From Gaiellaceae bacterium (lineage in GTDB: Bacteria > Actinomycetota > Thermoleophilia > Gaiellales > Gaiellaceae), in the NCBI GenBank assembly GCA_035456125.1, contig DATIDT010000029.1:8694-72693 (forward strand): a stretch of 64,000 bases of DNA, read 5' to 3'. The notes under the pieces were generated by a model that worked only from the letters and a program-made list of their open reading frames with translations, searched no databases and had not been told where the DNA came from. Below are positions 4,028 to 43,368 of the stretch, piece after piece (position 1 is the stretch's first letter; each line of letters begins with the position of its first letter). A program made the translations under genes and the position numbers.

Positions 4028-4737
4028 CGTCCGTCCACCGCCGACAGGGCCAGCAGCGCCGCGTCGAGGTCGTCCTCGCCGGTCTGGCGGCGCAACGCGC
4101 CGACGGTGGTGGCCGCGAGCAGGGCCCCTTCACGCAGGAGCACCAGGTCGTCGCAGCGCTCCGCCTCGTCCATGACATGGCTGGAGACGATCAGCGTCGC
4201 GCCTCGCGCGGCGAGTTCGGCCAGGTGCGCCCAGAGGTCGCGGCGCAGGACGGGGTCGAGGCCGACGGTCGGCTCGTCGAGCACGAGCACCTCGGGGCTC
4301 CCGATCAACGCGGTTGCGAGAGCCGCACGCGCACGCTGGCCGCCGGAGAGCCGGTTGACGACGCGGTCGGCATCCTCCGCGAGCCCGACCGTCTCGATCA
4401 CATCGTCGACCTGCGCGTCACCGGCGCGGAGCAGGCGCGCAAAGTACCTCAGGTTCTCGCGGACGGTCAGATCGCCGTAGACGGACGGCGCCTGTGTCGT
4501 GTACGCGACCCGCGAGCGGAGCTCCGGCGCGCCGGCGGGCAGCCCGAGGACGCTGACGGCGCCGCGCTCGATCCTTTGGACGCCGACGATCGACCGCATC
4601 AACGTGCTCTTGCCGCTGCCGTTCGGACCGAGCAAGCCGGTGATCGCGCCGCGGCGGACTTCGACGTCCAGGTCCGCAAGTGCGAGGCGGCCGCCGCGAA
4701 CGACTCGCAGCCGCTCGACGACGACGGCGCTCTGCAT
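4024..4737 (-). CDS. ABC transporter ATP-binding protein
   Basis: Walker A GPNGSGKST, signature LSGGQRAR, Walker B LVLDEPT. Confidence 0.9.
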   Translation of the reverse strand: MQSAVVVERLRVVRGGRLALADLDVEVRRGAITGLLGPNGSGKSTLMRSIVGVQRIERGAVSVLGLPAGAPELRSRVAYTTQAPSVYGDLTVRENLRYFARLLRAGDAQVDDVIETVGLAEDADRVVNRLSGGQRARAALATALIGSPEVLVLDEPTVGLDPVLRRDLWAHLAELAARGATLIVSSHVMDEAERCDDLVLLREGALLAATTVGALRRQTGEDDLDAALLALSAVDGR

Positions 4738-4741
4738 GGGA

Positions 4742-6130
4742 CTAGCCGGCGGCGGCGGCGGCTACGGCAGCGGCGACGCGGGGCGCAACGTCTCGGTTGA
4801 AGACGCTCGGGATGATGTAGTCGGCGCTCAGCTCGTCGAGCTGGATCGCGCCCGCGATGGCCTCGGCGGCCGCAACCTTCATCTCCTCCGTGATATCGGA
4901 GGCCCGCGCGTCCAGCGCGCCGCGGAAGATGCCGGGGAAGGCGAGGACGTTGTTGATCTGGTTCGGGTAGTCGGAGCGCCCGGTCGCGATGACGGCGGCG
5001 CGCCCCTGGATCTCCTCGGGCAAGACCTCGGGCGTCGGGTTGGCCATCGCGAAGACGATCGCGTCGCCGGCCATCCGCGCGATCCCGCGCGCGCTCACCG
5101 CGCCGGGCGCGGAGAGGCCGATGTACACATCCGCGCCTGCGAGCACGTCGTCGCCGGTGCCGCGCTCCCGGTTGGGATTCGTCTTCGCGGCGAATTCGGC
5201 CTTGATCCCGCTGAGGGCCGGATCGCCCGCCGAGAGCGCACCGTGCCGGTCGACGCCGACGATGTTGGTGACGCCGGCCGCGAGCAGAATGTTCGCCGTC
5301 GCGATGCCGGCGGCGCCGACGCCGGTGATGACGACCTTGACGTCCTCGGCGCCCTTGTCGACGACGCGCAAGGCGTTCAGGAACGCCGCGAGGACGACGA
5401 CTGCCGTCCCGTGCTGGTCGTCGTGGAAGACGGGGATGTCGAGCACATCGCGCAGCTCCCGCTCGATCGTGAAGCAGCGCGGCGCCGAGATGTCCTCGAG
5501 GTTGATCCCGCCGAACACAGGGGCGATCGCGCGGACGGCGGCGACGATCTCGGCCTCGTCTTTCGTCGCGAGGCAGAGCGGCCATGCGTCTACGCCGCCG
5601 AACTCCTTGAACAGCAGCGCCTTGCCCTCCATCACCGGCAGCGCCGCCTCCGGGCCGATGTCGCCCAGGCCGAGCACGGCGGTGCCGTCGGTGACGATCG
5701 CGACGGCGTTCCGCTTGACGGTCAGGTTCCAGACGAGCTCCGGGTCCTCTGCGATGGCCGAGCAGACCCGCGCAACGCCCGGCGTGTAGGCCATCGAGAG
5801 GTCGTCCCGCGTCTTCAGCGGCACCTTCCCGTTGACCTCGATCTTGCCGCCGAGGTGCATGAGGTACGTCCGGTCGGACACGTGCTCGACTTCCACGCCG
5901 GGAACGGAGCGCGCCGCGGCGACGATGCGCTCGAGATGGTCGGCATCCCCGGCGAACACCGTCACGTCGCGCACCTTCTTGCCGGTCTCGACGCGCACGA
6001 GGTCGATCGCCCCGAGCGAGCCGCCGGCGTCGCCGATCGCGCGCGCGAGGTCGGCGAACGCTCCCGGCCGGTCGTCGAGGTGCGCGCGCAGCGTCGCGCT
6101 GAACGAGGCGGATGGATGAATCGCAACCAT
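4742..6130 (-). CDS. NAD(P)-dependent malic enzyme with N-terminal ACT-like domain
   Basis: TPGVARVC, TDGTAVLGLGDIG, FGGINLEDI and VITGVGAAGIA motifs. Start placed at MVAIHP (6130); an ATG at 6181 is an alternative. Confidence 0.85.
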   Translation of the reverse strand: MVAIHPSASFSATLRAHLDDRPGAFADLARAIGDAGGSLGAIDLVRVETGKKVRDVTVFAGDADHLERIVAAARSVPGVEVEHVSDRTYLMHLGGKIEVNGKVPLKTRDDLSMAYTPGVARVCSAIAEDPELVWNLTVKRNAVAIVTDGTAVLGLGDIGPEAALPVMEGKALLFKEFGGVDAWPLCLATKDEAEIVAAVRAIAPVFGGINLEDISAPRCFTIERELRDVLDIPVFHDDQHGTAVVVLAAFLNALRVVDKGAEDVKVVITGVGAAGIATANILLAAGVTNIVGVDRHGALSAGDPALSGIKAEFAAKTNPNRERGTGDDVLAGADVYIGLSAPGAVSARGIARMAGDAIVFAMANPTPEVLPEEIQGRAAVIATGRSDYPNQINNVLAFPGIFRGALDARASDITEEMKVAAAEAIAGAIQLDELSADYIIPSVFNRDVAPRVAAAVAAAAAG

Positions 6131-8745: not shown

Positions 8746-9911
8746 GTCTCTCCTCTCAGGCCGACATAGGCGGGGGCGGCGTGGGGCTCCTGCAGCGCCG
8801 AGAACAGAGCCGGGACGTCCTCCGGATGAAGCTCGCGCCCCCCGAGCCCGTACACGAAGGAATGCAGGTGAACGTCGGTGTCCGCGAGAACCGCCGCAAC
8901 GTCCGCGTAGAGCGGCGGCCGGCCGCCGGGCGAGTCCGCCCGGTCGAGCACGGCGATGTCGGCGACGTCGCACAGCGCGTCGCGCAGGGCGTCGACCGGG
9001 AGCGGGCGGAACGAGCGGAGCTCCAGCAGCCCCACGCGCTCGCCGTTTGCCCGCATCGCGTCGATCGCGTCCTTGATCGTCCCCGCCGTCGAGCCGAGAC
9101 AGACGATCGCGCGATCCGCGTCCTCCAGCTCGTACGGCTCGACGGCGTGGTACGCCCGGCCGGAGAGCTCCGCATATGCATCGGCCACTTCGTCGAAGAC
9201 GGCGAGCGCCGCCGCCATCGCCGCCACCTGCTGGTAGCGGACCTCGTAGTAGTAGTCGGGCATCGCGAACGGTCCGTGCGTCGCCGGGGCCCGCACGTCG
9301 AGCAGCGGGAAGGGAATCGCGTAGCCGCGCACGAAGCGGCGCGCGCGCCGGTCTGGGACCAGCTCGACGGGCTCGGCCGAATGCGTGATCGTAAAGCCGT
9401 CCTGGCAGACGAGCACGGGCAGGAGCACGTCGGGGTGCTCCGCAATCCGCGGCGCCATCAGCGTGAGGTCGTATGCCTCCTGCGCGTTCTCCGCGAAGAG
9501 CTGGATCGCGCCGGAGTCTCGAACGAGCATGCTGTCCGAGTGGTCGCAGTGGATGTTGATCGGGCCGGACAGCGCACGGTTCCCGAGGGCCATGACGATC
9601 GGTGCGCGCATCGCGGCGGCGATGTAGACGACCTCCGCCATCAACGCCAGCCCCTGTGACGACGTCGCCGTCATCGTCCGGGCGCCGGCGAGCGCCGAGC
9701 CGATCGCAGCGCTCATGGCGGAGTGCTCCGACTCGACGTTGACGATCTCCGTGTGTGCGCGACCGTCGGCGACGAACTTCGAGAACGTCTGGATGATCGG
9801 CGTCTGCGGCGTGATCGGATACACGGGGACGACGTCCGGATCCACCTGGCGCATTGCCTCGGCGACCGCTTCGCCGCCCGTCAGCACCGCAAGCGTGGGC
9901 TCAGTCGCCAT
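8733..9911 (-). CDS. porA: 2-oxoacid:ferredoxin oxidoreductase alpha subunit
   Basis: Internal start MATEPTLAVLTGGEAVAEA...YPITPQTPI...ESEHSAMSA. The 5' part of track ORF 8733..10163 is discarded. Confidence 0.85.
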   Translation of the reverse strand: MATEPTLAVLTGGEAVAEAMRQVDPDVVPVYPITPQTPIIQTFSKFVADGRAHTEIVNVESEHSAMSAAIGSALAGARTMTATSSQGLALMAEVVYIAAAMRAPIVMALGNRALSGPINIHCDHSDSMLVRDSGAIQLFAENAQEAYDLTLMAPRIAEHPDVLLPVLVCQDGFTITHSAEPVELVPDRRARRFVRGYAIPFPLLDVRAPATHGPFAMPDYYYEVRYQQVAAMAAALAVFDEVADAYAELSGRAYHAVEPYELEDADRAIVCLGSTAGTIKDAIDAMRANGERVGLLELRSFRPLPVDALRDALCDVADIAVLDRADSPGGRPPLYADVAAVLADTDVHLHSFVYGLGGRELHPEDVPALFSALQEPHAAPAYVGLRGETWPA

Positions 9912-10185
9912 CGCGCACCATCCTGATCGCGCCGGTCGGGCACACCGCCGCGCAGAGCTCACAACCCTTGCAGTAGTCGTCGTCGAAGCCGAGGAAGGTG
10001 GCGTCGTCGACGCGCACGGCTGAGTCGGGGCAGTAGAGCCAGCACAGCAGGCAGTTGACACAGGCGGAGAGATCGACCTCCGGCTTGAGACCCGTTCGCC
10101 AGCTGCCGGTTCGCGGCTGAACGGCCTCGCCCGGCAGCACGGTGCCGCCGACGCGGAGGTCACGCCACGCGCTCAGCTCAGACAT
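9901..10185 (-). CDS. porD: 2-oxoacid:ferredoxin oxidoreductase delta subunit (2x[4Fe-4S] ferredoxin)
   Basis: CVNCLLCWLYCP and CKGCELCAAVCP cluster motifs. GAGGAGGGG RBS. Confidence 0.85.
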   Translation of the reverse strand: MSELSAWRDLRVGGTVLPGEAVQPRTGSWRTGLKPEVDLSACVNCLLCWLYCPDSAVRVDDATFLGFDDDYCKGCELCAAVCPTGAIRMVRDGD

Positions 10186-10700
10186 GCGTACCCCTCCTCG
10201 ACGGCGGCTCGCACCTTCGCCGCGGGCACCTTCTTGCCGAGCAGCTCGACAGCCGCGTCCGCGACGTCGCCGACGCCCGGCTCGCCGACGGCCGCTGCGA
10301 GCGCTCCGACCATGATCAGGTTCGCGAACTTGGAGCCGTGGCGCTCCGCCAACCGGGTGGCCGGGATGCAGATCACGTCCTCGCCGGCAAGCTCCTCGGG
10401 CACGGCATCCGCGTTCAGCAGCACGACACCGTCGCGCTCGAGCCCGTCCGTCACGTCGACCTCGTGGAGCAGCGACGGCTCGAGCACCACGACGACGTCG
10501 GGATGGGTGATCGCGTCGTGCCTGCGGATCCGGACGTCGTCGACGCGGGTGTACGCCCGCAACGGCGCGCCGCGCCGTTCAGGCCCGTACTCCGGGAACG
10601 CCTGGACGCTCTTGCCGGCACGCAGCGCAGCGGTCGCGTACAGCTGCGACGCAGTCTTCGCGCCTTGTCCCGCGCGGGCGTGCCAGCGAATCTCTCTCAC
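10173..10700 (-). CDS. porG: 2-oxoacid:ferredoxin oxidoreductase gamma subunit
   Basis: MREIRWHARAGQGAKTASQLY..., typical gamma N-terminus. 4-nt overlap with the upstream gene. Confidence 0.85.
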   Translation of the reverse strand: MREIRWHARAGQGAKTASQLYATAALRAGKSVQAFPEYGPERRGAPLRAYTRVDDVRIRRHDAITHPDVVVVLEPSLLHEVDVTDGLERDGVVLLNADAVPEELAGEDVICIPATRLAERHGSKFANLIMVGALAAAVGEPGVGDVADAAVELLGKKVPAAKVRAAVEEGYACLS

Positions 10701-12070
10701 GGCTCACGCCTCCCCACGAACGCGTCGACGCCCGCGGCCGCGATCTTCGCGGCGCGTACGGCCTCGACGACAGTCGCGCCGCCGTTCGCAACGTCCCCCG
10801 CGGCGAAGTACTTCGGATTTGTCGTCTGGCCCGTCTCGCGGTCGATCCTCGGCCGCCCGCGCTCGAGCTCGAGCCGATCGATCAGCTCGAAGAGCTCGGT
10901 GCGGTTGCGCTGACCGATCGCCTTCACGACCGTGTCCGCCGGAAGCACGAACTCGGTTCCGGGCAGCTCCTCGGGGCTGCGCCTGCCGCTCTCGTCGGGC
11001 TCGCCCAGGCGGCAGCGCCGGCACTCGACCCCGGTCAAGGACTCGCTGCCGAGGAAGCGCAACGGAACGGTCAACCACTCGATCTGGACGCCCTCGTCGA
11101 GCGCCTCTTCGATCTCGTGCGGATAGGCCGGCATCTCGGCTTGCGTGCGGCGGTAGAGCATCGTGACCGTGCCCGCGCCGAGGATCTGCGCCTCGCGCGC
11201 GACGTCGACGGCCGTGTTGCCGCCGCCGATCACCACGACCGACTCGCCGACGTCGGGCGGCGCGCCGTTCTTGATCGCGTCGATGAACGGCAGCGAGTTC
11301 CAAACCCCGGGAAGCGAGTCGCCGGGATACACAACGTCGGCGTCCGCGCCCATGCCGACCGCGAGCACGACGGCGTCGTTGAACGACTCGATGTACGCGA
11401 GAGCGTCGCGCGTGTCGATTGCGACGCCGAGCTCGAACTTCACGCCGAGATGCGTGAGCGCGCGGAGCTCCTCCGGCAGCGGCTCCTGCTGCAACCTGTA
11501 CGGGGCGATCGCGAACCGCGCCAGCCCGCCGCCCTCGACGCGCTCGTCGTACACGGTGACGTCGAAGCCGCGGGCCGCAAGCTCACCGGCGCAGACGAGG
11601 CCGGCCGGGCCTGCGCCGATGACAGCCACGCTGTACCAGTTGCGCGGACACGCGCGGCGCAGCGGCCTGTCGGCGTCGAGCGCGGCGTCGGTCGCGAACC
11701 GCTGCAGCCGTGCGATCTCGAGAGGTCGCCGCCCCTCGTGCGCAAGCAGGCACGCCGCTTCGCAGAGCGTCTCGACCGGGCAGACCCGCGCGCACGTGCC
11801 GCCGAGCAGGTTCTCCGCGAAGATCGTTGCCGCGGCCGCCTGGCGGTCGCCGCGCGCGAGCGCCCCGACGAATGCGGGAACGTCGACGTTCGCAGGGCAT
11901 GCCGTCACGCACGGCGCCGGTGCGTACGGGCCGCCGCACTCGAGGCAACGGTCGGCCTCGAGCAGCGCCTCGCCCTCGGTCAAGGGCGGGCGGAGCTCCT
12001 CGAAGACTGTTCGGTGGTCCGCGGTGGCGGTCATCGCTTCGAGTGTGGTCTCCGCGGAAGACCTGGACAT
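10697..12070 (-). CDS. GltD/SudA-like NAD(P)H-dependent FAD + Fe-S oxidoreductase
   Basis: N-terminal Cys clusters (CLECGGPYAPAPCVTACP; CARVCPVETLCEAAC), then VAVIGAGPAGL and VVVIGGGNTAVD dinucleotide folds. Start could instead be M13 (12034). Confidence 0.8.
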   Translation of the reverse strand: MSRSSAETTLEAMTATADHRTVFEELRPPLTEGEALLEADRCLECGGPYAPAPCVTACPANVDVPAFVGALARGDRQAAAATIFAENLLGGTCARVCPVETLCEAACLLAHEGRRPLEIARLQRFATDAALDADRPLRRACPRNWYSVAVIGAGPAGLVCAGELAARGFDVTVYDERVEGGGLARFAIAPYRLQQEPLPEELRALTHLGVKFELGVAIDTRDALAYIESFNDAVVLAVGMGADADVVYPGDSLPGVWNSLPFIDAIKNGAPPDVGESVVVIGGGNTAVDVAREAQILGAGTVTMLYRRTQAEMPAYPHEIEEALDEGVQIEWLTVPLRFLGSESLTGVECRRCRLGEPDESGRRSPEELPGTEFVLPADTVVKAIGQRNRTELFELIDRLELERGRPRIDRETGQTTNPKYFAAGDVANGGATVVEAVRAAKIAAAGVDAFVGRREP

Positions 12071-34534: not shown

Positions 34535-36154
34535 ATGAACATGCTGCGGGAGACCGACCGTCTCCGAGCGCTGGTCGAGACCGGGATCGCAATCAACTCA
34601 GAGCTTTCGCTGGACGGCGTGCTCGAGCGCATCGTCGAGGCGGCGGCACGCGTGACCGGCGCCCGCTACGCGGCGCTCGGCGTGATCGACCCGACCGGAA
34701 GCGGGCTCGAGCGCTTCGTCACCTACGGCCTGACGCCCGACGTCGAGTCCCAGATCGGGCACCCCCCGCACGGCAGGGGCATCCTCGGCGTCCTCATCGA
34801 GGACGCGCGGCCGTTGCGGCTGCACGACCTGACGCAGGATCCGCGCTCGGTCGGGTTTCCGCCGGGCCATCCCGCGATGCACTCGTTCCTCGGCGTGCCG
34901 ATCAAGCTGCGCGGCGTCGCCTTCGGGAACCTGTACATGACGGAGAAGGAGGGTGGCGACTTCACCGACGAGGACGCTGACCTCGTCTCGCTCCTCGCCG
35001 CGCAAGCAGCCGTGGCCGTTGAGAATGCGCGGCTCTACGAGGCTGCGACGGCATGGTCGAAGCAGCTCGAGTCGCTGAACGAGGTCGGCGCGGCGCTCGT
35101 CGGCGAGCTGGAGCTCGAGCCCTTGCTCGATCTCGTCGCCACGCGTCTGCGCGAGCTGATCGCGGCGCGCGTGGTCGCGATTGCGCTGCCCGCCGCAGGC
35201 GGGCTCCGGATGGCCGCCGCAGTCGGCGACGACGGCGACGTGATGACGGCGATCGGCAACCTTGCGGAATCGTCGAAGACGCAGCGCGTCCTGGAACGCG
35301 GCCAGAGCGAGCGAGTCGACTCGCTGTTCGAGGATCCGGAGGTGAACCAGGTCATTGCGCGGCGTCTCGGAGCGACCACGGGCCTGTACGTGCCGCTCCG
35401 CTCGCGCGAGCGCGCGATCGGCGTGCTCATCGCGCACGACAAGATCGGGCGGGACCAGCGCTTCACCAGCGGCGACCTGCGGCTCGCAGAGCAGTTCGCG
35501 CTCCGCGCGTCGATCGCGGTCGACCTCTCCCAGCGCGTCGCGCGCGACTCGCTGCGCCGGGTCGTCGCCGGCCAGGAGGTGGAGCGCCGCCGTCTCGCAC
35601 GCGAGCTGCACGACGAGACCGGTCAGGCGCTCACGTCGATCCTGCTCGGCCTGCGCGCACTCGAGGAGGGCGGCGACTCGGGTGTCGACGCGCTCCGTGA
35701 GCTCGTCGTGTCGACGTTGCAGGACGTGCGACGCCTGGCCGTGCAGCTCAGGCCGAAGGCGCTCGACGACTTCGGCCTGGTGCCGGCACTCGAGCGCCTC
35801 GCACAGACGTTCTCCGAGTCGAGCGGCATCACGACCGATCTCGAGGCACGACTCGGCGAGGAGCGGCTCCCGGCCGACGTCGAGACGACCGTCTACCGCA
35901 TCGTCCAGGAAGCGCTGACGAACGTCGTCAAGCACGCAGAGGCGAAGAACGTCAGCATCTTGCTCGTGCGACGCGGCTCGGTCGTCACCGCCGTCGTCGA
36001 GGACGACGGGCTCGGGTTCGACGCCCATGCGGTTCGCGACGACAATCTCGGACTCGAGGGGATGCGCGAGCGCGTCGAGCTGCACGACGGCCGTATGACG
36101 GTCGAGACGTCACCCGGTTCGGGCACGACGCTTCGCGTCGAGGTGCCGCTGTGA
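34535..36154 (+). CDS. GAF-GAF sensor histidine kinase (HisKA_3 + HATPase), DosS/DevS-like
   Basis: GAF-A: ...ARYAALGV...IGHPPHGRGILGV...DPRSVGFPPGHPAMHSFLGVPI..FGNLYMTE. H-box RELHDETGQ. G-boxes DDGLGF and GSGTTL. Confidence 0.85.
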   Translation: MNMLRETDRLRALVETGIAINSELSLDGVLERIVEAAARVTGARYAALGVIDPTGSGLERFVTYGLTPDVESQIGHPPHGRGILGVLIEDARPLRLHDLTQDPRSVGFPPGHPAMHSFLGVPIKLRGVAFGNLYMTEKEGGDFTDEDADLVSLLAAQAAVAVENARLYEAATAWSKQLESLNEVGAALVGELELEPLLDLVATRLRELIAARVVAIALPAAGGLRMAAAVGDDGDVMTAIGNLAESSKTQRVLERGQSERVDSLFEDPEVNQVIARRLGATTGLYVPLRSRERAIGVLIAHDKIGRDQRFTSGDLRLAEQFALRASIAVDLSQRVARDSLRRVVAGQEVERRRLARELHDETGQALTSILLGLRALEEGGDSGVDALRELVVSTLQDVRRLAVQLRPKALDDFGLVPALERLAQTFSESSGITTDLEARLGEERLPADVETTVYRIVQEALTNVVKHAEAKNVSILLVRRGSVVTAVVEDDGLGFDAHAVRDDNLGLEGMRERVELHDGRMTVETSPGSGTTLRVEVPL

Positions 36155-36795
36155 CCAGCGTCGTGCTGGTCGACGACCACCACGTCGTGCGGTCCGGCCT
36201 GCGGCTGCTGCTCGACAGCCAGCAGGACATCGAGGTCGTGGGCGAGGCGGGGAATGCGAAGGACGCTGTGTTCCGCGCACGCTCGTTGAAGCCGGACGTG
36301 ATCCTCCTCGACGTCGTCATGCCGGGGGAGAGCGGCATCGAGGTGCTGCCCAGGCTGCTCAAGGAGTCGCCGAGCACGAAGGTGCTCGTGCTCTCGATGC
36401 AGGACGACCCCAGCTACGTCCGCGAGGCGTTCGCGGCCGGAGCGAGCGGCTACGTGCTGAAGGAAGCAGCCGACGAGGAGGTCGTGTCCGCGGTGCGCGA
36501 GGTTGCGGCCGGCGGAAACTACGTCCATCCCGCGCTCGGTGCGCGGATGGTCGCAGCGGAGGCGAGGGAGCGCGCCGACGCGGAGGCCGACCCGCTCTCA
36601 GAGCGTGAGCGTGAGGTACTGCGGCTGCTCGCGCTCGGTCACACGAACCAGGAGATCGCGCAGCAGCTCTACATCTCGGTGCGCACGGCCGAATCGCACC
36701 GGGCGCACATCATGCAGAAGCTTCGTCTGACGACGCGCGCGGAGCTCGTGCGCTACGCGTTGACGCACGGCCTTCTCGCCGAAGAGCCCGACTAG
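36151..36795 (+). CDS. NarL/LuxR-family response regulator, DosR/DevR-like
   Basis: GTGA coupling. VVLVDDHHVVR...DVILLDVVMPG receiver domain. C-terminal LSEREREVLRLLALGHTNQEIA...SVRTAESH HTH. Confidence 0.9.
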   Translation: MTSVVLVDDHHVVRSGLRLLLDSQQDIEVVGEAGNAKDAVFRARSLKPDVILLDVVMPGESGIEVLPRLLKESPSTKVLVLSMQDDPSYVREAFAAGASGYVLKEAADEEVVSAVREVAAGGNYVHPALGARMVAAEARERADAEADPLSEREREVLRLLALGHTNQEIAQQLYISVRTAESHRAHIMQKLRLTTRAELVRYALTHGLLAEEPD

Positions 36796-37525: not shown

Positions 37526-37945
37526 CTACTTCACGCGTACCGTCAGGTGCAGCACGTTGTCCTTTCCGATCGTCTTCGCCATCGACTTCATCCACGGGTA
37601 GTCCTCGCCCGCCCTCGTCACGAAGCGATACGTGCCGGCGTGGCCGAACTTCACTGCCCTCGACGCGGACATGCGGTTCATGCCGGCGTGCCTCAGCGTG
37701 AGCTTCGGCCCGGCCTGCTGGATCAGACGGTGGGGCATGATGTCGTTGTTCACGAAGCGCAAGGTCGCACCGGCTCTGAGGGCGACCGTCAAGTTGACCT
37801 TCGGGTTCCCGTCGTTCAGCTGCCACAGGTGGCAGCCCTTCGTCTCATGGGTGATGGTGATCGTCCGTGCGCCGCCGGCGGGCGCCGCCGGAACGGCGAT
37901 CGCTGCTGCAGCCGCGACGACCACGAGCGGGCTCTTGATCGACAT
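37526..37945 (-). CDS. Secreted hypothetical protein with signal peptide
   Basis: AAGGAGGGACC RBS. MSIKSPLVVVAAAAAIAVPAAPAGGA signal-like N-terminus, then a beta-rich ~110-aa domain. Confidence 0.6.
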   Translation of the reverse strand: MSIKSPLVVVAAAAAIAVPAAPAGGARTITITHETKGCHLWQLNDGNPKVNLTVALRAGATLRFVNNDIMPHRLIQQAGPKLTLRHAGMNRMSASRAVKFGHAGTYRFVTRAGEDYPWMKSMAKTIGKDNVLHLTVRVK

Positions 37946-38071
37946 GGTCCCTCCTTCGGACAGTGCGCGCAGTGTGGTCGCCCGCCGCTGGGGAGCCATC
38001 CGCGCGGCGCCCGATCGGGTGTGCGGCTTTCTTCGGATGCCGCCCTACCCGCAGGCAATCATTCTTTCCGC

Positions 38072-38332
38072 ATGCGCCAGAAGACCTATGCGGTGTGGTG
38101 GCAGGAGCCCGAGGGGCCCCGACATGCAGGGAAGCTGCAGCTCGGGAGCCTTCATCTCCTTCTTTCCGGCAACGGGTCGGGTCGCATCGCCCTGCCCCTC
38201 GACCAGATCGTCTCGGTGGACTACCGCCGCGGCGAGCTGCACATCGAGCGCAAAGATGGCGCAGACCTTCAGATCGGCAACCTCGACGGCCCGGGGGCCT
38301 TGCTCGAGCTGAGCGAGGCGCTCGCGGCCTAG
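38072..38332 (+). CDS. Hypothetical 86-aa protein
   Basis: Terminal part of composite track ORF 37001..38332. No clear RBS. Its stop overlaps the convergent gene stop (CTAG). Confidence 0.4.
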   Translation: MRQKTYAVWWQEPEGPRHAGKLQLGSLHLLLSGNGSGRIALPLDQIVSVDYRRGELHIERKDGADLQIGNLDGPGALLELSEALAA

Positions 38333-38532
38333 TCGTCCGAGCCTTCGTTCTCGACCGGGCCGCGCGTCGGCGGAACGACGTCGGCAGGGGCGGCCGGGAA
38401 GTGCACCACCGGCCGGAACTTGCCGACCGGATCGTTGCTGGACGAGCCGTAGCCGAGCAACGCGAGGTTCGCAGCGACCGCCGCGGCGGCCGCGAGCGCG
38501 ACCAGCACCACCGTCAACAGCACACGCGTCAC
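38329..38532 (-). CDS. Small bitopic membrane protein (67 aa)
   Basis: GTG start overlapping the FdR stop (GTGA). VTRVLLTVVLVALAAAAAVAANLALL TM, then a Pro-rich acidic tail. Confidence 0.5.
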   Translation of the reverse strand: MTRVLLTVVLVALAAAAAVAANLALLGYGSSSNDPVGKFRPVVHFPAAPADVVPPTRGPVENEGSDD

Positions 38533-39548
38533 GCCGCCAACGCTAGCTCGCGCCGGAAGACGGCGATGTCGGCGGCTCGGTTCGCAGCGAGCGCTGCGAC
38601 CAGCCTGTCCTCGCGACTGAGGTAGCGGGCGGTGAAGCTGTCGTCCGAGCCTTCGCATTCGACCCGTGCCGCTGCACGCGTGTCGCCGACGAGCTGGAGC
38701 CTCAAGCCGAACTGATCCGACCAGAAGAACGGCGGTTGCGCCGGAAGGGGATCGAGCCCGAGGATCCGACGGGCCGCGGCGACGCCGCCCGCGGCGGCGG
38801 ACGTCCAATGGCCGGGGCCGCCGGCAACATCGCCGCACGCGGTGAAGCCCGCGCGCACGAGCTCGCGCGCAGGCTCGGCTCCGACGGACAGCAGCACGGC
38901 GTCGCAGGAGACGGCTGTGCCGTCGGCGACCGCAACTCGTGTCGGAGCGAGCGCCACTGCGGGCGCACCGGTGCGCAAGTCGACGCCGTTCGCCCGATAG
39001 CGACGGGCGAGGACGTCGCCGACCTCCACGCCGAGCGTTCCGGCGAACGGCGCCGCCCCCGCCTCGAGCATCGTCACGTCCACGCCGAGACGCCGGGCCG
39101 TGGAGGCAACCTCCGCGCCCACGAAGCCGCCGCCGACAACGACGAGGCGCCGCCCCGGCCGGAGCTGTTCCCGAAGCGCGACGGCGTCCCCGAGTGACCG
39201 CAAGACGTACACCGCCTCCGCGCCCGGGACGGGAATGCGACGCGCACGTGCACCGGTGGCGATGACGACCGCTTCGCCGGCACGGCGGCGGATCGCTTCC
39301 ACGCGGCAGCCGAGCACGAGCTCGATCTCGTTCTCGTGCCAGTACTGCGGCGAGCGAAGGAGGAGCTCGCCGGCGGAACGCTCCCCGGCGAGGAACTCCT
39401 TCGAGAGCGCCGGACGTTCGTACGGGGCGGTCTGCTCCTCGCCGACCAGCCTGATCCGGCCGTCGTATCCCTCTGCGCGTAACGTCTCCGCGCACCGCGC
39501 ACCGGCGAGCCCGGCGCCGACGATCAGCACTGACCATGGCCGCTTCAT
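38529..39548 (-). CDS. NAD(P)H-dependent ferredoxin reductase (FAD, putidaredoxin-reductase type)
   Basis: ATGA coupling to the ferredoxin stop. VLIVGAGLAGARCAE, YERPALSK, LVVVGGGFVGAEVA, CGDVA motifs. Confidence 0.85.
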   Translation of the reverse strand: MKRPWSVLIVGAGLAGARCAETLRAEGYDGRIRLVGEEQTAPYERPALSKEFLAGERSAGELLLRSPQYWHENEIELVLGCRVEAIRRRAGEAVVIATGARARRIPVPGAEAVYVLRSLGDAVALREQLRPGRRLVVVGGGFVGAEVASTARRLGVDVTMLEAGAAPFAGTLGVEVGDVLARRYRANGVDLRTGAPAVALAPTRVAVADGTAVSCDAVLLSVGAEPARELVRAGFTACGDVAGGPGHWTSAAAGGVAAARRILGLDPLPAQPPFFWSDQFGLRLQLVGDTRAAARVECEGSDDSFTARYLSREDRLVAALAANRAADIAVFRRELALAA

Positions 39549-39742
39549 GCCGCCTGGATCTCGATCACGCTGATCGCTGCCATGGGACACGCCGCGGCTG
39601 CGTCGCGCACGCGCGGATCGCCGGACTCCCCGACGCGCACGGACGCTGTGCCGCCGGCGTCGAGCTCGAAGATCTCCGGTGCGAGGTCGGCGCAGGCGCC
39701 GAAGCCGCTACACAGGTTGCGGTCGATCTCGATTCGATACAT
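39545..39742 (-). CDS. Small single-cluster ferredoxin (3Fe-4S/4Fe-4S type)
   Basis: AAGGAGGAAG RBS. 65 aa, CSGFGAC...CP motif. Confidence 0.8.
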   Translation of the reverse strand: MYRIEIDRNLCSGFGACADLAPEIFELDAGGTASVRVGESGDPRVRDAAAACPMAAISVIEIQAA

Positions 39743-40292
39743 GACTTCCTCCTTGGAGTGCTGGACGAACGGGACGCATCAGAACGCGCCAGGCAGTTGC
39801 GAAGACGACTGCCGCGACGGCAGCGAGGTAGAGCGTGAAGACCCACGGCCGCGACGTATCCGTGCCGGCCGCGAGACCGTGCACCGTCACGGCGGCGAAG
39901 ACGACGTACGTGGCCCAGTGGAGGCGGCGCCAAAGGCGCGCACCGATTCGCCTGCGCAGGGAAAACGACAGGACGATGACGGCAGCGAGCTCGGCGGCGA
40001 GCACCCCGAGCGCCGTCGGGACCGGCCTGTACGGGCTCAGGCCTGGAACGAGCAACGCAGGCAGTCGGATCCGGACGGTCGAATCGAGCGTCAGCGCAAG
40101 CCCATGCACTGCGACCGCGCCGAGCGCAAGCACCGTCAGGAAGCGGTGGGTGTCGGTCGCGGCAGCCGCGCGGACGCGCGTTCCAAGCGGCCGCGACTTC
40201 ACGACGAGCCCCGCGAGCATCGACAGCGTCAGCAGGACGTACGCGGTGAGGCCGCTCGCCCGCGCGAGGATCCAGAACGTCGGATCCTTCAC
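39708..40292 (-). CDS. Ferric-reductase-like transmembrane (bis-heme b) protein without a dehydrogenase domain
   Basis: GTG start overlapping the upstream stop (GTGA). 5-6 TM. His pairs HRFLTVLALGAVAVH (H-x13-H) and HWATYVVFAAVTVH (H-x12-H) lie in hydrophobic helices. Confidence 0.75.
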   Translation of the reverse strand: MKDPTFWILARASGLTAYVLLTLSMLAGLVVKSRPLGTRVRAAAATDTHRFLTVLALGAVAVHGLALTLDSTVRIRLPALLVPGLSPYRPVPTALGVLAAELAAVIVLSFSLRRRIGARLWRRLHWATYVVFAAVTVHGLAAGTDTSRPWVFTLYLAAVAAVVFATAWRVLMRPVRPALQGGSHVSNRDRPQPV

Positions 40293-40609
40293 GACGTCCG
40301 CGTCACGGTCAGGGGCGGCAAGGTCACGAAGCGCACCGACGGTGCCGCCGCGGGCTGCGCCCGCCGGGCTGCGATCTGAGCGTGTCGCTTCTTCAGCTCG
40401 GCGCGGTAAACCGCCCAGCGCTTCTGCACGATTCGGTGGACGACGAGGCTCTCGTGCCTGATCCGCTGCTCTCTCGCGGCGAGGGCCGCAACCCGCGGAT
40501 CGGCCTTGGCGGCCGCCACCCAGGGGCGCGCGGCGAAGACGCTCCACGCGAGGAAGAAGACGAGCAGCGCGAGGGCGAGCGCGTAGAGCCGGCCGACGTG
40601 GCTAGTCAT
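40289..40609 (-). CDS. Small bitopic membrane protein B (106 aa)
   Basis: MTSHVGRLYALALALLVFFLAWSVF TM, basic helical region, Ala/Pro linker, terminal VRFVTLPPLTVT strand. 8-nt overlap with the upstream gene. Confidence 0.55.
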   Translation of the reverse strand: MTSHVGRLYALALALLVFFLAWSVFAARPWVAAAKADPRVAALAAREQRIRHESLVVHRIVQKRWAVYRAELKKRHAQIAARRAQPAAAPSVRFVTLPPLTVTRTS

Positions 40610-40943
40610 CGGACTCTCGCTCGTGCTCGGCTTCCGAGTTCGGGCGGTGCTTGACGACGACGAGCGGCGCGGGACGTCGATAGACGACCTGCGGCGGCGC
40701 TGGCGCCGCAGCACGCGCGGCCGGCAGCGCCGGCAGCGCAGGCGGCTTCGCGCGCAAGGCGTGGCGCAGCGACGCCTCGACGCGGTCGAGCCTGTGCGCA
40801 CGGGCGGTCAGGGCCGCGGAGGAGGCGGAGGCCGCGCTTGCGTTGCCCGACCGCAACCCTGCTGTCTTCGTCGCGGCCAGGAAGCCGAAGACCGCCGACA
40901 CGGCGAGGATCGCGGCGACTGTGAGTGCGTGGATCGTTTTCAT
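40602..40943 (-). CDS. Small bitopic membrane protein A (113 aa)
   Basis: MKTIHALTVAAILAVSAVFGFLAA TM/signal, helical region, Ala/Pro linker, VVYRRPAPLVVV strand, acidic tail. Same architecture as protein B. Confidence 0.55.
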   Translation of the reverse strand: MKTIHALTVAAILAVSAVFGFLAATKTAGLRSGNASAASASSAALTARAHRLDRVEASLRHALRAKPPALPALPAARAAAPAPPQVVYRRPAPLVVVKHRPNSEAEHERESDD

Positions 40944-41008
40944 GTTCCGACCGTACGACGTTCGCTGCCAGAGCCGGGACAGGCGCACGTAAGGCTTCGG
41001 AAGCCGAC

Positions 41009-41026
41009 GGCAAAGATTTGGCAAAG
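41009..41026. promoter_or_regulatory. Direct repeat GGCAAAG-N4-GGCAAAG (11-bp phasing) in a divergent promoter
   Basis: Read directly. AT-richer patch caaagatttggcaaag. The adjacent palindrome GGCTTCGGAAGCC is at about 40993-41005. Confidence 0.35.
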
Positions 41027-41066
41027 GCCGCGCTGCGCGGTCGTGCTCGTGCGTCAGGATGCGAAC

Positions 41067-41717
41067 GTGCGCGTGCTGATCGTCGAGGACGAGGACGCGA
41101 TTGCAGAGCCACTTGCAGAGGGGCTTCGTCGCGAGGGATTCGACGTCACCCGCGCCGCCACCGGTGCCGAGGCGCTCGCTGCGACGGCCGCCGACGTGGT
41201 GCTGCTCGATCTTCGGCTGCCGGACCGAGACGGTTTCGACGTCTGCCGCGAGCTTCGCTCGCGCTCCGCTGTGCCGATCATCGTCGTCACCGCGCGCGGC
41301 GAGGAGGCCGACCGAGTCGCCGGCCTCGAGCTCGGCGCCGACGACTACGTCGTCAAGCCGTTCGGGCTCCGCGAGCTGATCGCGCGCATCCGCGCCGTCA
41401 CGCGAAGGGCACGGGGTGACCACGCCGGCTCGACGACCCGCATCGGCGACCTCGAGGTCGACGTTCGCGCACGTCGCGCGACACTGGGCGGTCGCAGGCT
41501 CGAGCTGACGCAGAAAGAGTTCGACCTGCTTGCCGCGCTCGCGCGCGACCCGGGCGCAGTGCTGAGCCGCCGCCGGCTACTCGAGGACGTCTGGGACACG
41601 AGCTGGTACGGCTCGTCGAAGACGATCGACGTCCACGTCGCCGCGCTGCGCCGCAAGCTCGGCGACCCATCGTGGATCGAGACGGTGCGCGGCGTCGGCT
41701 TTCGCCTGCGAGCGTGA
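41067..41717 (+). CDS. OmpR/PhoB-family response regulator
   Basis: GTG start VRVLIVEDEDAI..., DVVLLDLRLPDRDG, winged-helix C-terminus ...TVRGVGFRL. Confidence 0.9.
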   Translation: MRVLIVEDEDAIAEPLAEGLRREGFDVTRAATGAEALAATAADVVLLDLRLPDRDGFDVCRELRSRSAVPIIVVTARGEEADRVAGLELGADDYVVKPFGLRELIARIRAVTRRARGDHAGSTTRIGDLEVDVRARRATLGGRRLELTQKEFDLLAALARDPGAVLSRRRLLEDVWDTSWYGSSKTIDVHVAALRRKLGDPSWIETVRGVGFRLRA

Positions 41718-43087
41718 GCCGACGCATTCTCCTCGGGTACCTCGGCCTCGTGATCGTCGTGCTCGTGGCGCTCGAGGTGCCGCTCGGGATCCAGAACGCG
41801 CGCACCGAACGGCGCGATCTCGAGGCGAAGGTCGAGCGGGATGCGACTGCGCTGGCGTCCGTCTCGCAGGATGCCCTCCGCTCGGGTGGCAACCGGAACC
41901 TTCGCGCACTCGGGGCCGTCGCGTACGGCTATGACCGTGCGACAGGCGGCCGGGTCGTGATCGTCAACCGTCGCGGGATCGCCGTCGTCGACACGCGCCC
42001 GCGCGGCAGCGGAGCGGAGAGCTTTGCCTCGCGGCCGGAGATTGCGGCGGCGCTTCGCGGGCGCGTGGCGGTCGGCACGCGTCACTCTGCAACCCTCGCC
42101 CGGACGCTGCTGTACGTCGCGGTTCCTGCCGCAGCCGCGGGACGTGTCGCCGGTGCGGTGCGAATCACCTATCCGACGTCGGCCGTCGACGCGCGCGTGC
42201 GGCGGTACTGGCTCGTGCTCGGAGCCATCGCGGCGATCGCCCTGGCGGGGGCGGCAGTCGTCGGGTTCCTGCTGGCCCGTTTCGTCTCGCGCCCGCTCGC
42301 CCGGCTCGAAGACGCCGCGGCCGCCGTCGGTCGCGGCGACCTCGGCGCCCGCGCGCCGGAGGACCTCGGGCCGCCGGAGGTGCGGTCGCTCGCAGCGGTC
42401 TTCAACGAGACCAACGCGAAGCTCGAGCAGCTGCTCAAGTCCCACGAAGAGTTCGTGGCCGATGCGTCGCACCAGCTGCGCACGCCGCTGACGGCAGTGC
42501 GCCTGCGGCTGGAGAACCTGGAGCGCGACGTCGACCCTGCCGGGCAGCGGGAGCTCGACGGCGCGATCGGGGAGGTCGAACGGCTCGGTGTGCTCGTCGA
42601 CGGGCTGCTCGCCCTCTCGCGCGCGGCCGCCGAAGCCGCGCCCGCGGAGGCCGTCGACGTCGAGAGCGCTGTCCGCGAGCGTGTGGAGGCGTGGTCGGCG
42701 CTCGCGCAGGAGCGCGGCCTGAAGCTCGTGACGACAATGGACGAAGGGGCGGGGCGTGTGCGCGCAGCGCCGGAACGTCTCCGGCAGGTTCTCGACAACC
42801 TGATCGAGAACGCGTTCGAGGTGTCGAGCACAGGCGGCAGCGTCACGGTCGCCGCGCGCACGGCGCCGCCGTGGATCGAGCTGCGCGTCCAGGACGAGGG
42901 GCCCGGGCTCGACGCCGAGGGCCGGCGGCGAGCCTTCGACCGTTTCTGGCGCGGGCGCACGGGCGAGGGAAGCGGTCTCGGCCTCGCAATCGCACGGCGT
43001 CTCGTCGAGGCCGACGCAGGAGAGATCGAGCTCGTGCCCTCACCGAACGGAGGGCTCGAAGCGGTCGTCCGGCTGCGGCCCGCTTAA
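41714..43087 (+). CDS. Sensor histidine kinase (2 TM, ~150-aa extracytoplasmic domain, HAMP, HisKA, HATPase)
   Basis: GTGA coupling. H-box FVADASHQLRTPL, N-box LDNLIENA, G-box DEGPGL...GSGLGLAI. Confidence 0.9.
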   Translation: MSRRILLGYLGLVIVVLVALEVPLGIQNARTERRDLEAKVERDATALASVSQDALRSGGNRNLRALGAVAYGYDRATGGRVVIVNRRGIAVVDTRPRGSGAESFASRPEIAAALRGRVAVGTRHSATLARTLLYVAVPAAAAGRVAGAVRITYPTSAVDARVRRYWLVLGAIAAIALAGAAVVGFLLARFVSRPLARLEDAAAAVGRGDLGARAPEDLGPPEVRSLAAVFNETNAKLEQLLKSHEEFVADASHQLRTPLTAVRLRLENLERDVDPAGQRELDGAIGEVERLGVLVDGLLALSRAAAEAAPAEAVDVESAVRERVEAWSALAQERGLKLVTTMDEGAGRVRAAPERLRQVLDNLIENAFEVSSTGGSVTVAARTAPPWIELRVQDEGPGLDAEGRRRAFDRFWRGRTGEGSGLGLAIARRLVEADAGEIELVPSPNGGLEAVVRLRPA

Positions 43088-43368
43088 GCCTGGCCCGACT
43101 TATTGGCCCAGTCGGCTTTCGCGTCTTCCTCCATCCGCTCGAGCCGCTCGTAGTAGTCCGGGAACTCCTTCATGTGCGCGAGCGCGATCTTGCCGGTGAC
43201 GATCGGATCGTCACCCGTCACGTCCGTCTGAGGATCGTGACTCCCGTGCTCGTACTCGATGTCCATGCCGGCGCGAAACTGCTCGAGATCGAACCTGCTC
43301 CAGTCGATGCCGATCGCGTCGCCGACGCGACGCGCTTCCTCCACGCTTGTCCGACGCGTCTCCGTCAT
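43084..43368 (-). CDS. DUF5661-like small protein
   Basis: TAGGAGG RBS. ...GMDIEYEHGSHDPQTDVTGDDPIVTGKIALAHMKEFPDYYERL. Family name is from memory. Confidence 0.55.
   Translation of the reverse strand: MTETRRTSVEEARRVGDAIGIDWSRFDLEQFRAGMDIEYEHGSHDPQTDVTGDDPIVTGKIALAHMKEFPDYYERLERMEEDAKADWANKSGQA

Follow-up and report, generated by a model that had tools for sequence, protein, structure and literature searches.

A conserved Gaiellaceae operon with a putative split transmembrane electron-transfer complex built around a two-heme ferric-reductase-type core

We analysed a stretch of 64,000 nucleotides, hereafter the window (contig DATIDT010000029.1), from a high-G+C genome of the Gaiellaceae (Thermoleophilia, Actinomycetota). 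It contains a block of six minus-strand genes encoding a ferric-reductase-domain membrane protein (FRD), a ferredoxin (Fdx), a ferredoxin reductase (FdR) and three small single-pass proteins called A, B and S67 (Table 1). An earlier reading of the same DNA, the original prediction, had described these as six overlapping genes, and all six open reading frames (ORFs) and their five junctions were reproduced. The overlaps at A/B, B/FRD, FRD/Fdx, Fdx/FdR and FdR/S67 measure 8, 4, 35, 4 and 4 nucleotides (nt), respectively; the first reads ATGACTAG (40602-40609), the second GTGA (40289-40292), the fourth ATGA and the last GTGA. The ATG of Fdx lies within the FRD reading frame and is preceded at 6 nt by AGGAGG. 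The block had been given the extent 38329-41066, of which the lower limit holds; the upper limit includes the 123-bp promoter region, gene A itself beginning at 40943.

Table 1. Features of the operon and of its divergent regulatory genes; positions are those of the window.
Feature	Position	Strand	Basis or location
Gene A, 113 amino acids	40602-40943	minus	ORF and sequence
Gene B, 106 amino acids	40289-40609	minus	ORF and sequence
FRD (ferric-reductase-domain membrane protein), 194 amino acids	39708-40292	minus	PF01794, AlphaFold2 model, Foldseek
Fdx ferredoxin, 65 amino acids, predicted single cluster	39545-39742	minus	Fer4_15, Fer4_13
FdR ferredoxin reductase, 339 amino acids	38529-39548	minus	Pyr_redox_2, Pyr_redox, Reductase_C
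S67, 67 amino acids	38329-38532	minus	ORF, orthologues
Divergent promoter region, 123 bp	40944-41066		between A and the response-regulator gene
OmpR/PhoB-family response regulator	41067-41717	plus	NCBIfam matches
Sensor histidine kinase	41714-43087	plus	Pfam HAMP, HisKA, HATPase_c

The conservation of this arrangement was examined in a scan of GTDB with one genome per species. The broad FRD alignment was too diverse for a locus scan and a narrower one was used instead, which gave 355 places encoding FRD relatives. The best 80 of these 355 were fetched and three metagenome loci were added, giving the set of 83 loci to which the counts below refer. All of the 80 fetched loci that bear a family- or genus-level name belong to Gaiellaceae or Gaiella, the others having a class or phylum label only. 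The gene order A-B-(ApbE)-FRD-Fdx-(FdR)-(S67) is retained across the set, with A found at 78 of the 83 loci, B at 81, Fdx at 75, FdR at 61 and S67 at at least 39, a lower bound because tblastn is insensitive at 67 amino acids. The junctions recur as well. The 8-nt A/B overlap is present in 74 of 78 orthologous loci; the FRD/Fdx overlap is 35 nt long in 37 of 75 and 1 or 4 nt long in 32 others; 4-nt overlaps join Fdx to FdR in 42 of 60 loci and FdR to S67 in 23 of 29. Such recurrence in orthologous loci suggests a coupling beyond chance. When all six genes were compared with the two nearest orthologous loci, substitutions were found mostly at third codon positions: S67 shows 16 synonymous and 4 non-synonymous codon changes against locus L004, and B shows 25 and 10, respectively. 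This bias indicates that the small ORFs are real genes. The comparison shows that all six genes evolve under purifying selection, the three small ORFs that the original prediction had counted as proteins (A, B and S67) being conserved and constrained like the rest. We read the six genes as one operon, whose arrangement and translational coupling are conserved across Gaiellaceae.

FRD and B are 99-100% identical to two proteins of a Gaiellaceae metagenome-assembled genome, VLB89_03030 and VLB89_03035, both named 'hypothetical protein' at NCBI. FRD matches the Pfam family PF01794 (Ferric_reduct) with 27.1 bits (E = 4.7e-6), the cutoff being 28 bits. Among eight FRD relatives scanned with the same model, four scored above the cutoff (28.5-34.5 bits) and four below it (22.4-27.7 bits), and a near-identical database entry of FRD is annotated with PF01794. 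The match expected for a ferric-reductase-type protein was thus obtained for four of the eight relatives and narrowly missed by the window protein. Judged by its sequence, FRD is clearly homologous to the ferric-reductase-domain superfamily, although it falls formally just under the Pfam cutoff.

The two histidine pairs of FRD, H-x13-H (H49/H63) and H-x12-H (H125/H138), had been placed inside membrane helices by the original prediction, and this placement holds. In 34 relatives, down to 33% identity, H63 and H138 are invariant while H49 and H125 are at least 90% conserved. The AlphaFold2 model (mean predicted local distance difference test, pLDDT, 91.6) has five long helices, and the four histidines lie within predicted helices 42-69 and 118-142, which are helices 2 and 4. 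Searched against the PDB, a profile of the FRD alignment found a sole match, the NOX of Streptococcus pneumoniae (SpNOX), in which both histidine motifs align. Foldseek placed the model closest to DUOX1, the transmembrane (TM) domain of csNOX5, SpNOX and STEAP1, with probabilities of 0.97-1.0 and TM-scores of 0.5-0.6; the STEAP-type matches were 8ucd and 6y9b. No FAD_binding or NAD_binding domain was found in FRD with Pfam and the protein ends 23 residues past its last helix, in agreement with the earlier claim that a dehydrogenase domain is missing. Conservation and model together show a five-helix core with two predicted bis-histidine heme b sites, H49/H125 and H63/H138. NOX/FRE proteins have six helices; the model of FRD has five long ones and lacks the first, h1, which may be supplied in trans by S67, A or B.

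Many FRD homologues carry the JGI label 'methionine sulfoxide reductase heme-binding subunit' or YedZ, and the original prediction had spoken of a NOX/MsrQ-type reductase. In E. coli, MsrQ contains one heme together with an FMN held by Arg77/Arg78; in NOX and DUOX, the position of Arg77 is occupied by a histidine ligand of the inner heme (PMC12525009). For an alignment with hhalign we used an E. coli MsrQ sequence whose numbering matches every residue named in that paper. H49 of FRD was aligned with Arg77, R50 with Arg78, H63 with His91, H125 with His151 and H138 with His164. A histidine at the Arg77 position is the two-heme signature of NOX/FRE proteins and not that of MsrQ. The earlier label is thus kept in its NOX/FRE part and dropped in its MsrQ part.

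The two proteins following FRD were recognized as the ferredoxin and the reductase that had been proposed. Fdx matches Fer4_15 (2.7e-13) and Fer4_13 (9.8e-11) and contains the motif C-x2-F-x2-C...CP, which reads CSGFGAC...CP in the window and whose three cysteines suggest a cluster of the [3Fe-4S] type. Of 72 distinct orthologues, 70 have the three-cysteine motif, and in nearly all of them the variable position is Phe. CXX?XXC(X)nCP is the motif class of actinobacterial P450 ferredoxins, and the ferredoxin Fdx6 of M. marinum also has Phe at the variable position (PMC6237146). Fdx is acidic, with 10 D/E against 5 K/R, and its gene always lies between FRD and S67. FdR matches Pyr_redox_2 (2.6e-42), Reductase_C (1.3e-12) and Pyr_redox, contains two GxGxxG motifs, and finds its best NCBIfam matches among the ferredoxin-NAD+ reductase subunits of dioxygenases; by these features it is a putidaredoxin-reductase-type FAD/NAD(P)H enzyme. 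It is about 20 residues shorter than the family median of 360, and this 339-residue form is common to loci L004 and L005. Neither a P450 nor an MsrP-like client of this pair had been seen in the original prediction. The P450 heme signature is indeed absent from the 64-kb window and from every one of the 83 loci. No molybdoenzyme or MsrP-like gene was found with Pfam and NCBIfam, the scan of the window covering only the operon and its neighbouring genes. Within 8 kb of the operon, the 83 loci share no conserved client gene, whether MsrP-like, FMN_bind or of another kind. The neighbour that does persist is FRD, to whose gene Fdx, and usually FdR, stay translationally coupled in about 80 genomes.

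A, B and S67 have no match in Pfam or NCBIfam, and each contains one N-terminal hydrophobic segment (residues 6-24 in A). In A, the N-terminal TM helix is followed by a second helix, a PPALP-type linker, the strand motif 'VVYRRPAPLVVVKH' and an acidic and histidine-containing tail that ends in DD. In the A family, 62% of the tail consists of Gly (23%), Asp (15%), His (13%) and Glu (11%), and a C-terminal DD is found in 58 of 73 sequences. B begins with MTSHVGRLY and continues with one TM helix, the sequence ARPW, a basic helix, a variable Ala/Gln linker and a conserved C-terminus, VR(V/F)VTLPPLT(V/I)TRTS, of which the final TRTS is kept in 67 of 79 sequences. More than 2,300 metagenomic relatives were found in a profile search with B, almost all of them unnamed or called 'hypothetical protein'; five bear unrelated JGI names. 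None of the relatives has a Pfam domain. S67 has a single TM helix, in which an Asn (AANLALLGY) is invariant, as well as an NDPVGK motif and an acidic tail, which ends in DD in all 38 distinct orthologues. The original prediction had considered A and B to be of one design. A shared design remains plausible, but the profiles of the two families match only weakly (pairwise E = 3.4e-4, probability 38%) and do not establish common ancestry. The N-terminal stubs of both families carry a nearly invariant histidine, at residue 5 of A (M-x-K-x-H) and at residue 4 of B (in MTSHVGRLY); it is predicted to be cytoplasmic and to adjoin the membrane, and could serve as a docking site or as a ligand. A fusion of A with the N-terminal ectodomains of longer FRD relatives was also considered; only a low-complexity acidic/His stretch aligns and no such fusion is claimed.

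A closer link between S67 and FRD is suggested by more distant relatives, at 35-50% identity, in which a signal-less ApbE is followed by FRD (loci L084, L086, L087, L088 and L090). An S67-like gene, whose TM helix carries the same conserved Asn, stands directly after FRD in L084, L087 and L088; in L084 and L088, where the full proteins are available, its acidic/His tail ends in DDD. In L086 the order is response regulator, A, B, ApbE and a single protein, P0128, in which the S67-like part forms the C-terminus of FRD. Gene order, Asn motif and DDD terminus agree, and we therefore read S67 as an FRD subunit, probably an additional TM subunit. Since the S67-like gene directly follows FRD in these relatives, Fdx and FdR would be an insertion between the two made in Gaiellaceae. 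Two further observations concern the distant relatives. P0173, an FRD relative of 329 residues, has a sixth helix and a β-rich outer domain containing FGSGATRN, which resembles a flavinylation motif; some branches of the family may thus have an extracytoplasmic flavinylated domain fused to FRD. In L090, a protein with a PCYCGC motif and a HAD/P-type-ATPase-like gene (4117-5978) adjoin the ApbE-FRD pair, a single case that may hint at a connection with metal handling.

Most orthologous operons contain one gene more than the window. Between B and FRD, 68 of the 83 loci carry a gene of the ApbE family of FAD:protein FMN transferases, which overlaps both neighbours by 4 nt (L002, 7150-8004; among the distant relatives, L084, 456-1412 and L088, 412-1305). 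A tblastn search with the ApbE of L002 found no such gene anywhere in the 64-kb window, and it is also missing from the closest relatives (L004, L005 and others), in which, as in the window, the stop of B is joined directly to the start of FRD. The ApbE of the relatives begins with MMERRTFRAMGT and has no signal peptide, and L002 offers no in-frame start codon upstream of it. Its translational coupling to FRD extends throughout the subfamily. Its target could be the inner face of FRD, B or something else, these being candidates only. The FMN_bind domain was found by Pfam in no protein of the operon. A [ST]GA[ST] flavinylation motif noticed in A occurs at only one locus, listed twice as L002 and L017, and was attributed to chance. 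Of 15 ApbE-less operons, 14 keep both Fdx and FdR, and all FdR-less operons but one keep ApbE, a pattern that is weak and phylogenetically confounded and on which we do not rely. The history that we propose would start from a constant core of signal-less ApbE, FRD and an S67-like protein, into which Fdx and FdR were inserted between FRD and S67 in Gaiellaceae, ApbE being lost afterwards in the clade of the window. In about 18 loci, though not in the window, a paralogous module lies near the main operon and consists of a small TM protein, a second ApbE (ApbE2) and a second FRD (FRD2), about 40% identical to the main one (for example L009, 2986-4771 on the minus strand, and L043, about 9100-10870). 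In loci of the L043 type, the Fdx/FdR pair follows FRD2 and not the main FRD.

The orientation of these proteins in the membrane was deduced from charges and from fused domains. The predicted cytoplasmic segments of FRD contain 14 K/R against 2 D/E, the outer segments 5 against 3. In one group of FRD relatives, a signal peptide and a domain of about 200 residues precede helix 1, which places the FRD N-terminus outside the cell. The five helices would then correspond to NOX helices h2-h6, with H49/H125 as the inner and H63/H138 as the outer heme site. The N-terminal flanks of the single TM segments are more positive than the C-terminal ones, weakly in A and B and clearly in S67, and the B-like protein of L084 is strongly N-in. 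Such flanks suggest that A, B and S67 would cross the membrane from inside to outside, which is the orientation of the missing h1.

The original prediction had named three outcomes that would refute it, concerning the histidine pairs and the family match, the linkage of Fdx and FdR, and the conservation of the small ORFs; all three were checked and none went against it. Taken together, these data lead us to favour, with moderate confidence, the view that the proteins of the operon make up a transmembrane complex of several subunits for electron transfer, of the NOX/ferric-reductase kind, in which the dehydrogenase has been split into separate proteins. The FRD core would begin outside the cell and end inside it, and A, B and S67 would complete the membrane complex, S67 perhaps supplying the additional helix that is part of the same polypeptide in six-helix relatives. 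FdR would be reduced by NAD(P)H and would in turn reduce the acidic Fdx, which would dock on the strongly basic cytoplasmic face of FRD and pass its electron to the inner heme (H49/H125). From there the electron would move to the outer heme (H63/H138) and on to an acceptor outside the membrane. A more speculative part of the proposal is that the outer tails of A and S67, rich in Gly, Asp, His and Glu, bind the substrate. Similar stretches occur in the outer parts of distant relatives, such as DEHEDDEHE, HEGEHEGAGDDD and HDHD...HEEHDDDD. Acidic and histidine-rich outer tails suggest cation binding and hence, as a hint only, the reduction of Fe(III), Cu(II) or a similar metal cation, which would be the most plausible substrate. 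A bolder version would make the operon an unrecognized class of reductase, in which a five-helix, two-heme FRD core completed in trans by S67 (as the missing helix), A and B is driven by a [3Fe-4S] ferredoxin in place of a fused flavin domain and reduces metals captured by the tails, and in which an ancestral cytoplasmic ApbE, retained by most relatives and attaching a covalent flavin to the inner face as electron entry, was replaced by Fdx/FdR in the clade of the window; taken as a whole, we regard this version as doubtful.

The region upstream of A is shared with a divergent two-component system. On the minus strand it contains the direct repeats TTTGCC-N5-TTTGCC (41009-41025), a third, degenerate repeat two helical turns beyond them (40988-40993) and a -10-like box, TACGGT (40950-40955), ending 6 nt before the ATG of A. 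Of 49 intergenic regions compared, most retain the repeats and the TAC/GGT box. The 17-bp repeat pattern is found at a single place in the 64-kb window, where 0.03 occurrences would be expected. The NCBIfam matches of the response regulator are CreB, MtrA and CseB, all under their equivalog cutoffs. Its gene adjoins the operon in most loci, either divergently or directly upstream on the same strand. The kinase, kept beside the regulator, has two TM helices, an extracytoplasmic loop of about 150 residues and HAMP, HisKA and HATPase domains; in tblastn, the L002 kinase aligns from 41714 onwards, where the kinase start probably overlaps the regulator stop as GTGA. Position and conservation suggest that this OmpR-type system probably controls the operon through the three direct repeats, to which we infer that the regulator binds. 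The TACGGT box ends 6-7 nt before the ATG of A in the window and in the two relatives nearest to it, other loci having a leader of about 25 nt with GGAGG; at this short distance, the mRNA of A may be leaderless.

Several other genes lie around the operon. An intrinsic terminator was looked for 3' of S67 and none was found, including in the space between S67 and a small convergent plus-strand ORF of 86 residues (38072-38332, MRQKTYAVWW...), whose stop overlaps that of S67 by 4 nt; this ORF is kept in L004, L005 and L045 and matches no family. At 37526-37999, also on the minus strand and 330 bp downstream of S67, a gene encodes a protein of 157 residues that carries a signal-like segment at its N-terminus and matches no Pfam family; only the three nearest loci share it, and it is thus not a core part. 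A DUF5661 gene (43084-43368, minus strand) abuts the 3' end of the kinase gene and is found near the operon, on either side, in 7 loci. As possible acceptors we considered this 157-residue secreted protein, a cupin, the DUF5661 protein, and a cupredoxin with a Haem_bd protein (L001, L002); all are conserved among the nearest relatives only and were set aside. Another sensor pair lies on the plus strand (34535-36795), where the gene of a GAF-GAF histidine kinase (HisKA_3) shares 4 nt with that of a LuxR/GerE-type regulator; the pair is kept in some relatives only, and its architecture may resemble that of the redox or hypoxia sensors DosS/DosT-DosR.

Several observations weigh against the complex that we propose. 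The PF01794 score of FRD is 0.9 bits under the curated cutoff. FdR is absent from about 20 of the 83 orthologous operons, about a fifth, and the five distant loci with ApbE and FRD have neither Fdx nor FdR, so FRD evidently can work with another electron entry. The match between S67 and P0128 is weak (hhalign pairwise E = 3.5e-4, probability 37%), and AlphaFold2 predicts the extra helix of P0128 at a pLDDT of 52-54 only, which is uninformative on packing. The proposed scheme gives no role to the signal-less ApbE of relatives, and the [ST]GA[ST] motif is conserved in no protein of the operon, ApbE included (at most 7 of 39-83 members per family). Across the 83 loci, the surroundings of the operon contain no conserved client gene, metal transporters included. 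Finally, the data establish which parts there are, how they are ordered and coupled and that they are conserved; the binding of heme, the donor and the acceptor of the electrons, the direction in which they flow and the contacts between subunits are inferred.

We weighed four other explanations against this background. The system could be a true NADPH-oxidase analogue, whose outer heme makes superoxide from O2 for signalling or defence without any metal or protein acceptor. Its closest solved relatives by sequence and fold are indeed SpNOX, csNOX5 and DUOX1, and the H-x13-H/H-x12-H spacing is the two-heme arrangement of NOX. However, the same arrangement is found in the ferric reductases FRE (PMC3591440), and neither the three accessory proteins nor the acidic and histidine-rich tails conserved outside the membrane would have a role in an oxidase; we consider this explanation unlikely. 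The JGI names of many homologues (MsrQ heme-binding subunit or YedZ) and the apbE gene in the operons of most relatives, as in the 'MsrQ-like' flavinylation clusters (PMC8238504), would instead suit a system that passes electrons to a soluble extracytoplasmic enzyme, MsrP-like or flavinylated, encoded elsewhere, with A, B and S67 as docking subunits. This is improbable in view of the client search, which found nothing conserved within 8 kb in the 83 loci, of the histidine that FRD has in place of the FMN-binding Arg77 of MsrQ, and of an ApbE that has no export signal, finds no conserved canonical flavinylation motif and does not occur in the window.

The coupling of the genes bears on a third explanation, in which Fdx and FdR serve an unrelated cytoplasmic client, a P450 or dioxygenase encoded elsewhere, and the membrane proteins are non-redox or linked to quinones. 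Ferredoxins and putidaredoxin-reductase-type enzymes of these families normally support P450s or dioxygenases (PMC6237146; NCBIfam matches), and about a fifth of the loci do without FdR. Yet Fdx begins within the 3' end of FRD at 37 loci, with a shorter overlap of 1-4 nt at 32 others, Fdx never leaves its place between FRD and S67, neither the window nor the 83 loci contain a P450 signature, and the complementary charges of Fdx and the inner face of FRD fit direct docking. We thus hold an unrelated client to be very unlikely. Least probable of all, in our view, is that FRD and the small proteins are accessories of the adjacent two-component system, sensing redox state or metals and so modulating its kinase, and do not form an enzyme for bulk electron transfer. 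The linkage of regulator and kinase to the operon in most loci, sometimes directly upstream on the same strand, and the conserved repeats in the shared promoter region would fit, but they are equally what a regulated target operon looks like, and in L007, L011 and L013-L016 the operon has no kinase within 8 kb.

The split complex that we favour can be compared with several known systems. It shares with NOX/FRE proteins (SpNOX, PDB 8qt6/8qta; the Cylindrospermum NOX5 TM domain, 5o0t; DUOX1) the TM fold, the two-heme arrangement of H-x13-H and H-x12-H and the implied flow from cytoplasmic NAD(P)H to an acceptor outside. Those proteins have six helices and a fused FAD/NADPH dehydrogenase, whereas FRD has five and no such domain, the operon providing instead a separate ferredoxin, predicted as [3Fe-4S], a reductase of the glutathione-reductase fold and three single-pass proteins. 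FRD would resemble NOX in mechanism and, by its architecture, is not a member of NOX/FRE. A precedent for splitting is given by E. coli MsrQ (YedZ) and Fre, a 'two-component NOX-like' system feeding the periplasmic MsrP, in which an FRD-only protein is likewise fed by an NAD(P)H oxidoreductase that is a protein of its own, soluble and cytoplasmic (PMC12525009). In contrast to MsrQ, with its one heme and its FMN at Arg77/Arg78, FRD has His/Arg at these positions and would be expected to hold two hemes; the window operon has no msrP, and its donor chain consists of two proteins, FdR and Fdx, not one.

The 'MsrQ-like' actinobacterial clusters of Meheust et al. 2021 (PMC8238504) have a PF01794 protein beside apbE, as do most relatives of the operon, and NAD(P)H was proposed as their cytosolic donor. 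The presence of a signal peptide, either on ApbE or on its targets, was a criterion in choosing those clusters, which usually contain a fused NAD-binding domain or NuoF together with an FMN_bind gene. The present type differs in the signal-less ApbE of the relatives, in the lack of an FMN_bind domain or flavinylation motif, in the Fdx/FdR donor and, in the window, in the loss of apbE; by those standards, a cluster of the present type would not have been selected. The supplement text of that study, as far as searched, gave no term matching such a cluster, which does not establish its absence. Class I P450 redox chains of actinobacteria (PMC6237146) use the same ferredoxin class and reductase family, but here the terminal partner would be a membrane di-heme protein and not a soluble P450. 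The STEAP metalloreductases share the FRD fold and, as a possible function, the reduction of extracellular Fe(III)/Cu(II); they have one heme, FAD and a fused F420-type NADPH domain, in contrast to the two predicted hemes of FRD and its lack of a fused domain. The original prediction had known of no described system of this kind. That was too strong, because FRD-only bacterial proteins (PMC3591440), MsrQ/Fre and ApbE-linked clusters are known, but the exact composition was not found in the literature searched. This literature contained no account of a split donor chain of FdR and a [3Fe-4S] ferredoxin, none of a five-helix, two-heme core with three dedicated single-pass partners, and none of a tight cytoplasmic ApbE-FRD dyad such as that of the relatives.

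The Gaiellaceae are almost entirely uncultured, and their operon is conserved, abundant in soil metagenomes and unannotated, FRD and B being 'hypothetical' at NCBI and FRD 'MsrQ' at JGI. If our interpretation is true, the transmembrane wire of NOX and ferric reductases can be fed by a ferredoxin and built from separate small subunits. This would add to the known ways of moving cytoplasmic reducing power across a membrane, and would bear on the origin of six-helix flavocytochromes such as NOX from simpler parts. The coupling of a signal-less ApbE to FRD without a recognizable target raises a testable question on cytoplasmic flavinylation. The operon may also represent a route of extracellular iron or copper reduction in soil actinobacteria.

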